A stretch of 64,000 nt of DNA from Dictyostelium discoideum. Lineage: Eukaryota. The stretch lies in assembly GCA_000004695.1 (NCBI GenBank), contig CM000153.2, positions 1,792,001 to 1,856,000 of the forward strand, given 5' to 3'. The position numbers and the translations under genes were made by a program. Position 1 is the first letter of the stretch. Each line of letters begins with the position of its first letter. Of the stretch, positions 49,189-63,620 are shown one piece after another. The notes beneath the pieces were generated by a model that ran no database searches, had not been told where the DNA came from, and saw only the letters and a program-made list of their open reading frames with translations.

Positions 49189-50791
49189 ATGCAAGAAATA
49201 ATAACAAATAATATACCAACATTTAAATTACAAAATGATGTTGATATGGTTGAAGAAACTCAACCAACCACACCAACTACCCAACCAACCACACCAACCA
49301 CAAATACTATTTCCACTACCACTAATACTATCACATCAACATTAAATACAAATAATATTTCACCAATTTTGGAAGAAAGTGAAGAAGAGGATTCAAATGA
49401 ATTAATAATTGAAACTGATGAAAATAATACATCTGTTTCTGCTACTGGTACCACTCCAACATCATCATCATCATCATCATCATCATCACCAACAAACACA
49501 ACTACCACCACCACCACAACAACAACAGCCACAACTGCCAATAATGATTTTAAAAATATAACCAGTAATAATATTAATAAAACAAATTCAAATGTAAATA
49601 CAAATTCTGAAATTAAAAATATTGACAACTCAATTATGAATAGTTTGAATAGATATAATAATATTACAACCGCTTCACCAAGTAATAGTACAATGATTAC
49701 AATGAAATCAGCAATTTCCTCATTGGACGAAATTGTAAAAAATACAATGAAAGCTCAAAGAGAAAGTTTTATTGCCAATGAAGATAAAGAGTCACTTCCA
49801 GAACCTCAAACAAATTCCAATGTTAATGGAAACGAAGAAGCAAAAGACGAAAAGTATGTATTTTTTTTTTTTTATTATTACTTCAATATCTTTTTTTTTT
49901 TTTTTTTTTTTTTTTCCAACCCCAAACCGTAACTTTTTTTCGTTTTTTTAATATGTGGAAAAAAAAAAAAAAAAAAAAAAAAATTCCAACCCAAAATTAA
50001 TTTTTAATTTTTCTAATCATTTTTTTGAAATTTTTTCAATTTTTTTTTTTTTTTCCAAAAAAAAGGGAAATTCATTTATTAGCTAAAATCTTATTAAATT
50101 TTTCATCCAATGGAATTGCTGTACCAAATTTATCAGAAAGTTCACCAGCAGTATTGAATACTAAATTAAAGGATAGCTCAAACTTGGTTCCATACGGTGG
50201 AGATTTAAATACCAGTGTAAATGGAGTTGTTGGTAATTCCAGTGGTATGGTCGACCTTAGTGCTAGTACTGGCGATTTATTAGGTTCGTTAAATGCTGCC
50301 AATAAAAAGAAAAGACAAAGAACTAGTCCAGAACAATTGGCCATTTTAGAACAAATTTTTGAAACTGATAAAATGCCAAGCCAACAAATTAGAGTAAGAT
50401 TAGCCAATCAATTGGGTATGTCATCTAGAAGAGTTCAAATTTGGTTCCAAAATAAACGTGCTAAAGTAAAGAGAGGTGGTCCATTTGGAAAAGGTGATGA
50501 CAATGATGATTTATTCGCTGAGGGTGAAGATATAATTGATGAAGATGAAGATGAAGATTCATCTTTAACAATTGATGAAAGTGGTAATAATAATAACAAT
50601 AGTGGCAACAACAACAACAACAATAATAATGGAATCATGGGAGGCCATGGTATGTTATCATCATCTCCAACCAATTTAAACACATCATCTGATAATATTG
50701 TACCATCAATTTCACCAATGTTAACTTCAATTAATATAAATTCATCATCATCAACACCAACTTTACAATCTGTAAATTTATTAAATAATAC

Positions 50792-50861
<70 letters not shown>

Positions 50862-51317
50862 CATACTACTACCACAACTACAACTACTACTACAACTACA
50901 ACTTCATCATCACCACCATTAACTTCATTTAATTTCCAATTAAATCAATCATTAAATAAATTAACATCACCACCATCACCACCATCAATAGTACCATCAC
51001 CAAATAAAAAAACCAAACAAATGGGTGGCTTCAGTTTAAATTCAACTGCTTCTTCTTTACCATCATTCCCACAAATTAAATTAAATTCAAGTTCAAAACA
51101 TATTCCAACTGATAAACAAAATAATTCAGATTTTTCAAATTTTAATAATAATAATAATAATAACAATAATAATAACAATAATAATAATAACAATAATAAT
51201 ATTAATAATAATGGTAATAATAATAGTAATAATAACGATAGTAATAATAATAATAACAAATCCAATTTTTCCGATTATCAACCTTTAAAATTTCATAATA
51301 GTATTGTAAAAAATTAA
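49189..51317 (+). CDS. Homeobox transcription factor (TALE-less typical 60-aa homeodomain); 2 exons, 49189..49853 and 50066..51317
   Basis: Exon 1 is T/P/S-rich and ends ...EEAKDEK (GACGAAAA|gtatgt). Exon 2 after acceptor ccaaaaaaaag| is EIHLLAKILLNF...NKKKRQRTSPEQLAILEQIFETDKMPSQQIRVRLANQLGMSSRRVQIWFQNKRAKVKR. This is a canonical homeodomain with the WFQNRR-type recognition helix. It is followed by poly-N, poly-T and poly-S tracts. Confidence 0.75.
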
Positions 51318-52274: not shown

Positions 52275-53881
<1,607 letters not shown>

Positions 53882-53960: not shown

Positions 53961-54095
<135 letters not shown>

Positions 54096-54283
54096 AATAA
54101 TATTATTATTTTTTCTTTTAAAGTTTTTAATTTTAATTTTAATTTTAAATTAAAATTAATTAATAATATTTTATTAAAGAAATAAATAATTTTACAAAGG
54201 TTTAAATTTAAATTTTTTATTATTTTAATATTACTTATTTATTTTATTTTATTTTATTATACTATTTTATTTTTTAATTATCA

Positions 54284-54999
54284 TTATTATCAAAATTATG
54301 ACGACGATGATGACTATGATGGGTTGATGGTTTATACATATAGAGAGCAACCAATAAAAAGGTTATCATGAATATAATCAATAGAATAGTTTGATTTTCT
54401 AAAAAAAAAAAAAAAAAAAAGGAATATAGGTTAATAAATAATTTAATTTTTTTTTTAAAAATAAAATAAAATTAAAAATTAAAAAAACTTACTTGATTTC
54501 TTTTTTAAATTTTTTAATTTTGATTCATAGGTAATTAATTTTAATTTCATTTCATCCATTTGTTTTGAAAGTTCTTGAGTTGCACCAATTGTTTCCATTA
54601 CTAAAGCTTCATTTTTAATTACTAAAAGATTTTCAATTTCTTGGCCATTTACATTCTTATTACCAATGGTACGTACTGCATTTGGTAAAATTCTTTGAAG
54701 ATCTTGGGCGATAACACCTCTATCACAATTATCTAAATATGGATCCCTACCATTCATATGAGTCCATTGTGGATTATATTTATAGTCGTAAAGTTTCATT
54801 CTATTTACATTGTCAAGATTTGATTTTGAGTCGATCGATTTCAAATCATATTTTATTCTTAAATCTGATGGATGATAAACACCTTCAGATGCATAGATTG
54901 TACCTTGAACTGAAAGTGCATATGCTGGATTCTCTACATTAATACCAACTTTACCATTATATACAATTGATTTTTCTGTGTCACCTGAATTCCAATGAC

Positions 55000-55033
<34 letters not shown>

Positions 55034-55242
55034 TTGATTATTATGTTGATTATTAATATTATGATGATTATTATTATTATTATGTTGATTATTATTGTTA
55101 TGTTGATTATTATTATTATTATTTATATTATTATTAAAACAATTTATTCTACCATTTAATAAACTACTACTTGTTAACATATTACTATTATTATTATTTA
55201 TATTACCTAAACTATTATTATTACTATTATTATTATTATTTA

Positions 55243-55320
<78 letters not shown>

Positions 55321-56115
55321 GATTTTGAGTTAAACGTAAAATATTTGTTTGACCTTGACTAGTTAATTGTGATAAAGGACGTGGTGAAGTTGGTGAATGA
55401 CCAGGTGATACTATATTCATTGTTGAAAAATCTATATTTGATATAGTTGGACCAAAACAATTCATATTATTACTACCACCACCATTGTTACTACTTGTAC
55501 CAGCATAATCAGGGGTATGAACAGGTGATAGATCACCAGGTGGTGTTACTTGAGTTGCTGTACGAACAATGAGAGCAGGTGAAACGTAACTTACGATACA
55601 ATATTCTTGACCCATACAACGACCATACAATGATACAACCAATTGATTGAATTCTTGATGTGGATTTGGTTGACCATGTCTTCTGGCATTGTTAAGTGTT
55701 GCCTTTCTAAAATGTAATCTTTGTATACTAACCAATGAACCGAATTGAATTGCCACTGGTTTTGGTGCATGTTCACCTTGTTTCTCACGTTTTGAATTGG
55801 TTTGGAATAATTCCACCTCACTCTCTTGTTGTGACATATCAGCACGATTCTTTATACCTTTAATGGTAAGAGTTAAACCATTGATTGGTGTTTTCACACC
55901 ACTAATTAACATATAGGATGGTGTTTGAGTTGGATCGACTGATGATGAACTATTTGACAATGTAACTCCATTATGTCCATATTGTGTCTCTTGAAAAAGT
56001 TTTGGATAAACTGCTGTAATATCCAATTGAAAATGATTTCTTCTACAATAAATCCATTGTCCACCAATATATGAAAAACCTTTTGATGCCATAATATTTA
56101 AAAGTGGTACTGGCC

Positions 56116-56175
<60 letters not shown>

Positions 56176-57159
56176 ATAAAATGAGTTAATTATATATGTA
56201 TAAAAAAATAAAAAACATTAAAAAAAGATAAATAATTAATAACTTACATTTCATCACCATTTGTATTAAAAGTAGTATACCATGGTTCAGATTTATAATC
56301 GGTCCAAGTAAAAGGTGGATTTTCATTATATTGTGTCATTGGTGAAGGTGGATCAGAATTTTCATTCTCTGATCCAATCATTAAATAGTTATCAGTTGGT
56401 AAATGTGGTGATTGAATTGGTGAATTAGTTGGTGAAAGATTTGGTGATGGATTTGGTGATATACTACGTGGTGTATAACCTGATTGAGTATTTGTAATTG
56501 AAATTTGAGGTATTATACCTGGATATAATGATGATGATGATAATTGACTTGGTGTATTATTTGCATTAATTGTTAATCCATTATTTGTAGTTGTAGTTGT
56601 AGTTGTTTGAAGATGATTATGATTATTATTATTATTATTATTATTATAATTATTGTTATTATTTATATTATTATTATTTATATTATTATTATTGTTGTTG
56701 TTGTTATTATTATTATTATTTATATTATTATTACTATTGTTATTATTTATATTATTATTACTATTGTTATTATTATTTATATTATTATTATTATTGTTAT
56801 TATTATTAACTTGACTTGAATTTAAAGAAAAAGAAGGACTATTTACAGAACTATTAAATTGAGCTATTTGTTGTTGTTGATCTTGTAATTGTTGTTGAAG
56901 CATTAAAAAACTACTATCTAAACCACCATTACTACCAACCAATGAATTTGGAGAATAAGGGATCTCTGAATATGTACCGTCTTCATTCTTAATCTTTCTC
57001 TTTTTTAAATTTGAATCATCAGCTGATAATGGTGTAAATGTTGAGAATGAATTTGATCCTTGTATATTGATTGGTAAAGATGCTGATTGTTGGAGCATTG
57101 TTCCAAATCCGCCATTACTAATACCCAATAATTGATTATTTGAACCATTCATTGGTTGC

Positions 57160-57204
<45 letters not shown>

Positions 57205-57299
57205 GGGCTATGTAAAATACCACCCGATGAACCTAGATTCATTTGGTGTTGTTGTTGTTGTTGTTGTTGTTGCTGTTGCTGTTGGTTATACCCATCCAT
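54284..57299 (-). CDS. mrfA: Myelin-regulatory-factor-like membrane-tethered transcription factor (Ndt80/PhoG DNA-binding domain + peptidase S74/ICA autoproteolytic domain + TM); 3 exons, 57299..56248, 56114..54493, 54398..54284
   Basis: Exon 1 is a Q/N-rich activation-like region ending ...TWTDYKSEPWYTTFNTNGDE-AT with donor gtaagt. Exon 2 after acceptor taatag| starts G giving M, then PVPLLNIMASKGFSYIGGQWIYCRRNHFQLDI.... This is the Ndt80-type DBD; compare the MYRF motif F.CQKKNHFQ. Further on is ...NGKVGINVENPAYALSVQGTIYASEGVYHPSDLRIKYDLKSIDSKSNLDNVNRMKLYDYKYNP, the intramolecular chaperone/S74 domain. Donor TCAA|gtaagt at about 54493 and acceptor ttttttag| at 54399 add a micro-exon encoding KNQTILLIIFMITFLLVALYMYKPSTHHSHHRRHNFDNNDN*, the TM anchor. 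Intron 1 contains (ATT)n. Confidence 0.7.
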
Positions 57300-57404
57300 T
57301 TTTGTTTAGTTTGTTTGTTTGTTTGTTTGTTTTTTTTTTTTAATCTTTTACTAAAAAATTTTTAAAAAAAATTTTTTTTTCCCTTCTCCTTAAAATAATA
57401 ACGA

Positions 57405-57584: not shown

Positions 57585-57652
<68 letters not shown>

Positions 57653-57658
57653 CCCCCC

Positions 57659-57731
<73 letters not shown>

Positions 57732-57956
57732 AGTATTAAAATTACCAAATAACTGTATTATTTCAAAATTAATATTGTAAAATAGTGATTGTGTTGAAAA
57801 AAAAAAAAAAAAAGTAATAACAATTAAAAATAGGATGTATTTTTATTTTTATTTTTTATTTTTTTTTTTTTTTATTTTTTTTTTTTTTATTTTTTTTTTT
57901 TTTTATTTTTCTATTGGTGTATGTGAGTGGAATCTGGTATATCAAAGATTTTGAAA

Positions 57957-59675: not shown

Positions 59676-62468
59676 ATGAAATCCTCAAATGGTGTCGGTT
59701 GTACCGATTCTGTAAGTGTGTCTAATCTATTCAATTAATATAAATCTATAACTATTTCTAACTCTTATTTTATATATTTTTTTTATACATTTATTTTATA
59801 CATTTATTTTCGTATATCATAAATTTTATTAATTTAGATACAAGGATATTTATTTAAAAAAGGAAATTCATCTCTATTATCTTCATCATCAACATTATGG
59901 AAGAAGAGATGGTTTTCTTTAGAAAATGGTAGTACAACATTAAAATATTTTAAAAATTCAAGCGATGAATCACCAAAAGGTTCAATTAATATTCAATTAA
60001 TTGAATCAATTGATATTTTAACAACAACTACCACCACCACCACAACCACCACTACATTTGGAAATAAAGATAATACTAATAACAACAACAACAACAACAA
60101 CAACAATAATAATAGTAAATATTATTTCGATTTAAAAATTAAATCAAGAGTTTATCATTTATATTCTGAAACTGAAAGAGAAAGAGATTATTGGAATGTA
60201 AATTTAAATTTATCAATTTTAAAATCAAAAGAACCCTCACCCTCACTCTCACCACAATCACAAGTAAGACCAAGATCATACACTTTACCATCACCAACAC
60301 CAACAATTGTATTAGCAGAACCATCACCATCACCATCACCAACACCACTTCCACCACTACCAATACCACCAAATAATAAAACTAAACCTCCTCTTCCGCC
60401 AAAACCAATTTCACAACAACAACAACAGCCTGTACAACAACAACAACACCAACAACAACAACAACAACACCCAACAACAAATACTAATACCAATGGTAAT
60501 AGTAATAATAATAATGTAATTTTAAATAAAAAACAACAACAACAACAACAACAACCTGTAAAACAAAAAGAAATTGAAAATGAAGAAAATTTCGAATATG
60601 AAGATGATGATATTAGTTTATGTGGAGCAAAAAGAAAAGATTTTATAAAGAATCATTCTAGTGGATATATTACAAGTATGGTAGGAGTTACAAGATCAAA
60701 GATATGGTGTGGAGATTCTCAAGGTAATATTTGCACTTTCACATTGAGTAGAAATGGAAGTGGTGCTAATGGAATAACGGATAAAGTTAAGAAAGGATCA
60801 CAATGGAAAGAACATACTCTTATGGTAACCTCATTGGTTTATGTACCATCTCAAAAATTAGTTTACAGTTCATCATTAGATGGTAAAATTTGTGCTTGGG
60901 ATAGAACTGATTATAGTTTACTATTCTCTCATTCAAGTAAATTCCCAATTTATGATATGTTATTTAGTAAAAATGATTTATTAGTTTATTGTGGTGGTAT
61001 TTCATCATCACAACAACAACAACAACAACAACAACAAAATCAAAATCTACAAAATCAAAATCAAAATTTATCATTATTTGATACAGTTACAAAAGAAGAG
61101 ACAGAAATACCATTTCAATCATTTTTACCAAATTTATATAACAATGGTAATAGTGGGAATAAAAAAAGAAAATTTATAAAAATGGTAAAATTTGATGAAA
61201 AAATTATAATTTGTACAGATAGATGTGAAATTATAGTTTGGAGTCCATGGGATAATGAAATTTGTAAATATGTTAAAATTAATAATTCATATGATATTAC
61301 TGCAATGAATGTTGTTGGTGAGAATCTATGGATATGTACAACATCAGATACGAATGGTAATATATTTTCAACAACGAATCCGTGTTTGGTGATAGTGTTA
61401 TCAATTAAAACAGCATTGAAAAGGGTTAAAAGTTTTGAGTGTAGACATCCAATATCGCAATTTACATTGGTCAATGGTTACGTTTGGGCAATCACTCGTG
61501 ATTACATAACAGTTTATGAACAGAATACAGCTCAATTAGCCTATGAAACAATTATACTTAAAGAAGATATGAACTTTAAATTATTATATAATTTTAATAC
61601 TGTTTGGGTTGGTGGTACTTGGTTATTTAGATTTCAAATATTTAATAATTGGATTAGAGATAATTTAGAATATACAACTAACTCATCATCATCACCGGAT
61701 AAATCAGCAGCATCATCATCAGCAATTTCAATTAATATTCAACCAATTTCAGATTATTCAGATTTTGATAATGTTTTAAATGTTTTAGAATTAATTAAAG
61801 AGAGATTACAATATGATCATTGTAATCAACTTTATGATATTCTATTGGGTATTTGTGAGAATGATCAATTGAATTTAACAGATTTTAAAATATTAACATC
61901 AAAAAGTTTTAGATGGTTTGGTAGAAATCAATGTTCTTCAGTTATGCGTGAGTCAATTGTATCTGATAATAATAGAGTTTATAGAATTTCAAGAGTTTTA
62001 TCAAACTATTTACAACAATCAAATATTAAAGACTATTATATAAATATTAGAGAAAGTAGTAATAATATTACAATTAATGGTAGTGGTAGTGGTAATGGTA
62101 GTATTAATAGTAGTAATGGTAGTATAAATAATAGTGGTGGTAGTAATAGTAGTGGTTATAATAGTAATGTCATATTCATTTATGAAACATTAAAAACTGT
62201 TGAATATTTAGTTTCAAATTTTGATAAATTTTCAAAACAATTTCAAATTCAACAACAATTCATTGAAACTATTATTAAATTTACAACTCTATCATTACCT
62301 TCAAATAGATTAATCGTTTCAATTTCATTAATAATTTTATATCATTTATTAAATTCAAATGGTAATAATTTATTAAATATTTCATCCTCATCATCATCAC
62401 CCTCATCATCACCAAATCTATCAATAAATGATGGTTTAATAACTACTACTCCAACTTCAACTAATAAT

Positions 62469-62511
<43 letters not shown>

Positions 62512-63620
62512 ATAATTCAAGTTCAAGTGTAACAAAAAAAATTAAAGAAAATTTTAAAGTTAATAAAAATAAAGATAAAGATAAAGAAAGTAAAGGAAAT
62601 AAAGAAATTAATAACAATAGTAAAGATAATATAAAAGAGAATACTATAAAAGATATTGGTGGTAATAGTTTATATAATAATTTAAAAGATAAAGTAAAGT
62701 TATATCTATCAGTATTCTTTGATCAATCAATTGATGATAAAACTAAAATATCAATAATTAATGTTCTTTCAAGATTTCCAACAGAATTAAAAGAACAATT
62801 TAAAAAAGAGCTTTATTTAAATTCAACTTTTCAATTATTAAATCAAGGTATATCATTGGTTTGTAATGATTTAATTATAATCATGAATCAAATTTTAATT
62901 GATTCACCAAAAATTAAAGATCAAATTATAAAATATGTACCAAATTTATTAAATTTATTAGATCAAAAACAACAACAACAACCAATTAATGATAGAATTA
63001 GAATTTTTCAAATTATGTCAAATCCAACATTTATTCAAAGATCATATAATAATAATAGTATTGGTAATAATAATAATGATAATAAAAAATTAAAGAATAG
63101 AAAAGTTATAATTTCAAGTAATTTTAAATCACCAATTGAAAGTATTTTATTCACTATAAATTCAATTTTACATTCATTAAAGAGTACATCATTTAGGGGT
63201 TTAAAAATTACGATTTTAGATATAATTGTACCAAAAGAATTTAATCAAGATTTATTATCATCAATTAATGGTTCGATAATAAATTTAAATTTCATTTTAC
63301 CAAATCAAAGCTTTGTTTCAACAATTAAATTTAAATTTAATCCAAAGGATTTAGCAATTAAAGTGGCTTTTCAATTGGGTGTATCGGTTGGTGAGACCAC
63401 AATTTCAAATTTCTCAATCACTGGTGATCTTCAATTAGGTTTCACTCTAGGTACTGCTAAACCTGAATATATCTCTTTCTTGGAGGATCCAATCATTAAC
63501 TTTGATTTCGATTCAACTGGTGTTATCAATTTAATTGATAAATTTGTTAAACCAATCTTAAAAAAATCAATTAGAAAGAGATTAGTTCATCCAAATAGAT
63601 TTTATTTACCAAGTTCTTAA
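59676..63620 (+). CDS. Large (about 1272 aa) PH-domain + WD40-like repeat protein with an N/S-rich middle and a conserved-looking C-terminal beta-rich domain; 2 exons, 59676..59711 and 59838..63620
   Basis: Exon 1 is MKSSNGVGCTDS with donor gtaagt. Exon 2 after acceptor taatttag| is IQGYLFKKGNSSLLSSSSTLWKKRWFSLENGSTTLKYFKNSSDESPKGSINIQLIESIDIL...YYFDLKIKSRVYHLYSETERERDYWNVNLNL, a PH domain with the characteristic W in its C-terminal helix. The frame stays open for 840 nt into ORF 60678..63620 (WD-like: ICAWDRTDYSLLFSHSSKFPIYDMLFSKNDLLVYCGG). A TAG sits exactly at the acceptor. Confidence 0.65.

Follow-up and report, generated by a model that had tools for sequence, protein, structure and literature searches.

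The minus strand of the 64-kb window (the whole stretch of Dictyostelium discoideum DNA analysed here) almost certainly carries the gene mrfA, in three exons that together encode the 932-aa MYRF orthologue MrfA. Both the gene and its biology are already known from work published in 2012-2013 (Senoo et al., 2012, Int J Dev Biol 56:325; Senoo et al., 2013, J Cell Sci 126:5247, PMC3828593). The original prediction called the product 'MrfA-like', which was correct as to family and understated as a label: published primers, residue numbering and fragment masses all identify the gene as mrfA itself.

The gene is assembled from two large minus-strand ORFs, 57299..56244 (351 aa, Q/N-rich) and 56092..54479 (537 aa), and a 35-aa ORF that lies downstream of both and ends at 54274, joined via two introns, 133 and 94 nt long, that begin with GTAAGT and end with AG (Table 1). 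Rebuilt base by base, the spliced coding sequence is 2799 nt long and in frame, with one stop codon in terminal position, and encodes a protein of 932 aa and 104.3 kDa. The first exon contains the Q/N-rich N-terminal region, the basic motif KKRKIK and the start of the MYRF-type DNA-binding domain (DBD; from about residue 327 on), while the second carries the DBD, a poly-N linker, a putative beta-helical stalk and the ICA domain.

At the first junction our reconstruction agrees with what had been proposed: the two large ORFs are separated by an (ATT)n-containing intron, the repeat being an uninterrupted 59-nt trinucleotide array (56116..56174; period 3, 100% matches), and the AT/G join restores the Met codon in NGDE-M-PVPLL. 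The second proposed intron, spliced from TCAA to AA and adding an exon that encodes a transmembrane (TM) helix, was likewise recovered; the in-frame join TCA A/AA leads to the protein end ...KKKSKNQTILLIIFMITFLLVALYMYKPSTHHSHHRRHNFDNNDN, followed by the stop codon. The extent given for this last exon needs correction. It had been described as 115 nt long and ending at 54284, a 10-nt coordinate error that leaves out the stop codon and the three codons before it; the coding part extends to 54274 and measures 125 nt. 'Micro-exon' is also a misnomer for what is the last exon of the gene, whose sequence continues as 3'UTR, with AATAAA motifs from 54271 on.

Several properties of the sequence set this splice model apart from a chance arrangement. 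The window as a whole is extremely A+T-rich (22% G+C), and within mrfA the G+C content is 6-7% in both introns vs 26-27% in the exons. The hexamer GTAAGT occurs 17 times on the two strands of the window (~0.13 per kb per strand) and three times on the coding strand across mrfA, two of these three overlapping the stop codons that end the large ORFs. Given these positions, the low intron G+C and the single strong hydrophobic peak in the product, we consider the model to be more than coincidence. The third GTAAGT (55594) was ruled out as a donor because it falls within CIVSYVSP, a DBD motif that is invariant.

Table 1. Positions in the window of the parts of mrfA, of the domains of its product and of the adjacent GH9 cellulase gene.
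Feature	Position	Strand	Details
mrfA exon 1	57299..56248	-	1052 nt; CDS nt 1-1052; residues 1-350 and first two bases of Met351
mrfA intron 1	56247..56115	-	133 nt; GTAAGT...AATAG; phase 2; 6% G+C
mrfA exon 2	56114..54493	-	1622 nt; residues 351-891 and first base of codon 892
mrfA intron 2	54492..54399	-	94 nt; GTAAGT...T20AG; phase 1; 7% G+C
mrfA exon 3, coding part	54398..54274	-	125 nt including TAA at 54274..54276
KKRKIK basic motif	56988..57005	-	residues 99-104
NDT80/PhoG-type DNA-binding domain	55553..56059	-	residues 370-538; PF05224, E 3.5e-33, 115.8 bits (cut-off 27)
ICA / Peptidase_S74 self-cleaving domain	54542..54868	-	residues 767-875; PF13884, PF13887, 7dc3
TM helix	54334..54390	-	residues 895-913; in exon 3
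His-rich tail	54277..54333	-	residues 914-932 (19 aa); in exon 3
GH9 exons	~52275..53342, 53433..53670, 53745..53881	+	three ORF pieces
GH9 introns	53343..53432, 53671..53744	+	short; GTAAGT..TAG

The identification with mrfA draws first on the oligonucleotides printed by Senoo et al. (2013; PMC3828593), who used a pair of 'entire ORF' primers on mrfA cDNA. The 5' primer of this pair matches the window exactly at 57273..57302, covering AAA+ATG, and the 3' primer matches exactly at 54277..54302, on the codons that immediately precede the exon 3 TAA. The sense primers for the S767A and K772A substitutions are also exact, at 54858..54880 and 54836..54865, except at the mutated codons, where the window has the wild-type TCA (Ser) and AAA (Lys). 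The comparison covers four printed primers, ~110 nt in total; each substitution is represented by its sense primer, of which the antisense primer is the complement.

The encoded protein agrees with the published one in the same way. In the stretch SDLRIKYDLK of our model, S, D and K are residues 767, 768 and 772, equal to the published numbers, and the peptide DLRIKYDLK obtained by mass spectrometry is present (PMC3828593). Computed masses for the precursor, the N-terminal fragment and the C-terminal fragment are 104.3, 84.8 and 19.5 kDa, vs published values of 104, 85 and 19 kDa (PMC3828593). The published deltaTM construct lacks the last 38 codons, or 4.6 kDa (PMC3828593), and the last 38 residues of the model, T895-N932, come to 4.62 kDa. 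Printed primers, numbering, peptide and masses are what the identity rests on; for every feature that could be compared with the published D. discoideum MrfA we found agreement, and no difference was detected.

The second splice junction is pinned indirectly, since the sequences printed in PMC3828593 do not span it. It is supported by where the published ORF ends, by the extent of the deltaTM deletion (38 codons), by the sizes of the fragments and by conservation among orthologues. Other GT..AG pairs at this junction were rejected: they lose the conserved GATQELSKQ region, enter poly-isoleucine encoded by the downstream (TTA)46 array or give a non-hydrophobic tail, and at both junctions the alternative pairs also have weak donors or conflict with the published numbering or ORF end.

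Where intron 2 stays in the message, translation would run into its start and end with SKFF at a stop codon. Retention could conceivably act as a natural switch, giving rise to a minor soluble 895-aa MrfA (...SSKFF) that bypasses ER tethering; we regard this as very unlikely, and nothing in the sequence speaks for or against such a minor isoform. Were it real, the isoform would be active and its release from the membrane independent of cleavage, because the deltaTM form is still processed and rescues the null mutant (PMC3828593). Less probable again, and in our view very improbable, is the stronger proposal that intron 2 always or sometimes stays in, making the main product a soluble protein of 895 aa that ends ...KKKSSKFF and has no membrane anchor. 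The read-through ORF for such a protein does exist, and the behaviour of deltaTM implies that a soluble form is functional in principle, but the published 19-kDa C-terminal fragment fits residues 767-932 (19.5 kDa) and not 767-895 (15.0 kDa), uncleavable full-length forms co-purify with microsomes and are resident in the ER (PMC3828593), a TM helix lies at the same place in 7/7 dictyostelid relatives, and the intron itself has a perfect GTAAGT donor and a T20AG acceptor. A cDNA ending at the KFF stop, the outcome against which the original prediction had staked its last exon, is contradicted by the published cDNA ORF, which ends ...HNFDNNDN and was amplified with a 3' primer situated inside exon 3 (PMC3828593). 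We thus retain the three-exon model with its membrane-anchored product.

A homology search with the full protein, scored over the 8000 candidates with most words in common, listed nine matches, one from an insect, one from a metagenome and the rest from dictyostelids other than D. discoideum. Other dictyostelids have two MRF-like genes each (P0001-P0007): an MrfA orthologue group, 53-63% identical and with a short tail, and a paralogue group, 30-34% identical, in which the coiled coil ahead of the TM helix is longer and the luminal tail is long and S/T-rich. All seven of these relatives have, at the alignment position of the MrfA TM helix, a hydrophobic helix preceded by a basic stretch. A second search, with residues 724-932 only, listed no match at E<=1e-10; this looks like a limit of the search itself, as MrfA and P0001-P0003 have long identical stretches in common in that segment (e.g. 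YHPSDLRIKYD and GATQELSKQ). The basic motif is kept in the same three orthologues as KKRK(I/V)KNEDG.

By exact look-up, neither the 932-aa model nor its 895-aa KFF version was found in a collection of 15 billion proteins, and no D. discoideum entry was among the homology matches listed for the full-protein query. These absences are what one might expect if the window came from a very close relative or a divergent strain, with the locus an orthologue to which the published data apply by homology only. We hold this to be highly unlikely. The nearest other-species orthologues listed are only 53-63% identical and very different in length, while the window carries ~110 nt of published primer sequence without mismatch; moreover, residues 767-772 and the total mass agree with the published values despite more than 150 upstream residues of fast-evolving poly-N/Q, a filler described as translated AAC repeats (PMC3828593). 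The locus is best taken, then, as mrfA of D. discoideum.

The first junction is the more tightly constrained of the two by alignment. Enumeration gave four frame-preserving GT..AG pairs, among which only the one with the GTAAGT donor retains the conserved WYTTFNTNGDEMPVPLL; the corresponding stretch reads ...TNGEEM(P/I)TPQL... in three dictyostelid orthologues and aligns without gaps to ...YDANYKELPMLTY... of human MYRF. The junction is also fixed by the published S767 numbering, since this residue is downstream of intron 1. Splicing from a donor at 56280 or 56257, or to an acceptor at 56110 or 56080, can be dismissed with near certainty: the three further pairs do leave the frame open, but all of them remove residues of WYTTFNTNGDEMPVPLL that the orthologues and human MYRF have kept, rely on donors that are poor (GTATAC, GTGATG) and move Ser767 off its published number.

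The domains of the encoded protein confirm the layout that had been read from the ORFs. The Ndt80-type DBD is recognized by PF05224 (Table 1), and human MYRF DBD structures (5yhu, E 1e-17; 5h5p; 5zhu) match with E values from 1e-17 to 2e-15, from residue 327, the 5yhu alignment being unbroken across junction 1. Given that the similarity to the MYRF DBD begins at residue 327, the domain straddles intron 1. A linker of ~185 residues, mostly poly-N, leads from the DBD to the putative stalk. The self-cleaving S74/ICA domain is likewise borne out: PF13884 (Peptidase_S74) matches residues 767-832 over its full profile (1-58; E 8.8e-12, 45.6 bits, cut-off 22), and PF13887 (MYRF_ICA) scores 19.7 bits at residues 848-875, under its gathering cut-off of 24.1. 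Human MYRF accounts for all of the best solved-structure matches. In 7dc3, which comprises its stalk and ICA domain, similarity extends over residues 724-882 (E 2.5e-26), the alignment starting 43 residues before the cleavage serine. The codons of Ser767 (54866..54868, minus strand) and Lys772 (54851..54853) encode a dyad that is invariant in the aligned relatives, as are D768 and R770, in all eight aligned sequences. By homology to 7dc3, MrfA is assumed to trimerise via the beta-helical stalk and the ICA domain.

The single TM helix that had been predicted is also clear, with residues 895-913 (TILLIIFMITFLLVALYMY) reaching a 19-residue Kyte-Doolittle mean of 2.55 vs 1.11 for the runner-up in the whole protein. 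Weak Pfam matches to ThrE and FixQ merely reflect this hydrophobic helix, and a PDB match to NDC1 (9hcj, E 9e-4) was dismissed as falling in the poly-N tract. No match to PF13888 (MRF_C2) was found at E<=0.1 when the 932-aa protein was searched with Pfam profiles. Two further roles assigned from the outset remain suggestions, namely that the Q/N-rich N-terminus may act as an activation region and that the 19-residue His-rich tail would be luminal.

MrfA can be placed alongside three known systems. It has the same order of parts as the metazoan MYRF/MYRFL proteins (Bujalka et al., 2013, PMC3742440; Li et al., 2013, PMC3742443), i.e. an N-terminal region, an Ndt80-type DBD, a beta-helical stalk (putative in MrfA), a Peptidase_S74/ICA domain with its Ser-Lys dyad and a single TM helix. 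Similarity to metazoan MYRF is significant in the conserved domains, and only these align. The N-terminus is Q/N-rich in MrfA and proline-rich in metazoan MYRF, the long poly-N linker between DBD and stalk is a feature of MrfA, and the post-TM part of MrfA is a 19-residue tail with no MRF_C2 luminal domain. The lack of MRF_C2 sets MrfA apart from animal MYRF, yet MrfA is inside the wider MYRF/MrfA family.

The self-cleaving Ser-Lys dyad module is shared with the ICA domains of phage tailspikes and endosialidases (endoNF CIMCD, Peptidase_S74), and a cut before the serine has been published for MrfA and the phage module alike (PMC3828593). The fates of the fragments differ: the phage module is released as a folding chaperone of the virion fibre, whereas that of MrfA stays behind on the membrane side after a cut that sets a transcription factor free. 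With yeast Ndt80 and the fungal PhoG/VIB-1 proteins MrfA shares the Ig-fold, p53-like DBD family (PF05224); unlike MrfA, those fungal proteins are soluble and have neither an ICA domain nor a TM anchor.

How MrfA works has been shown experimentally for mrfA itself, with data on cleavage, ER residence and complementation (PMC3828593). The precursor of 104 kDa is tethered to the ER membrane via its C-terminal TM helix, which comes from exon 3. The phage-tailspike-type ICA domain then cuts on the N-terminal side of Ser767 by means of the Ser767-Lys772 dyad, setting free an 85-kDa N-terminal fragment with the Ndt80-type DBD, and regulated nuclear entry of this fragment drives prestalk (pstA) gene expression (PMC3828593). 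The S767A and K772A mutants are not cleaved, co-purify with microsomes, do not accumulate in the nucleus and do not rescue the null, and nuclear accumulation of the 85-kDa fragment is seen in particular prestalk cells (PMC3828593).

The surroundings of mrfA contain further genes and repeats. A GH9 cellulase gene in three ORF pieces (52275..53881, plus strand; Table 1) is convergent with mrfA, with Pfam Glyco_hydro_9 matching its first and second pieces at E 5e-99 and 2e-20. The two genes have their stop codons 392 bp apart, and in between lies a (TTA)46 array (53971..54110, 97% matches), which reads as poly-isoleucine in one frame and could mislead ORF- or TM-based scans. On the other side, some 300-430 nt ahead of the mrfA ATG, ~140 nt of near-pure homopolymer (57592..57732; A on the plus strand, T on the mrfA strand) is interrupted by a C7/G7 run and contains a 72-nt unit repeated 1.9 times. 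A homeodomain ORF at 50025..51317 (plus strand; Pfam Homeodomain, E 1.4e-19) probably represents exon 2 of a gene (49189..51317) that starts with an S/T/N-rich ORF at 49189..49932. Farther along, an uninterrupted 980-aa ORF (60678..63620, plus strand) has weak, sub-threshold WD40/beta-propeller matches near its N-terminus.

Recovering the correct three-exon model from raw sequence has value as a quality check, and here the outcome hinges on a short last exon, upon which the biology of mrfA depends: a view based on ORFs only misses this exon and mislabels a membrane-tethered factor as soluble. What the complete gene encodes has been known since 2012-2013, an ER-anchored Ndt80-type factor freed by a phage-derived self-cleaving domain, and MrfA is the Dictyostelium counterpart of the MYRF pathway in animal myelination.
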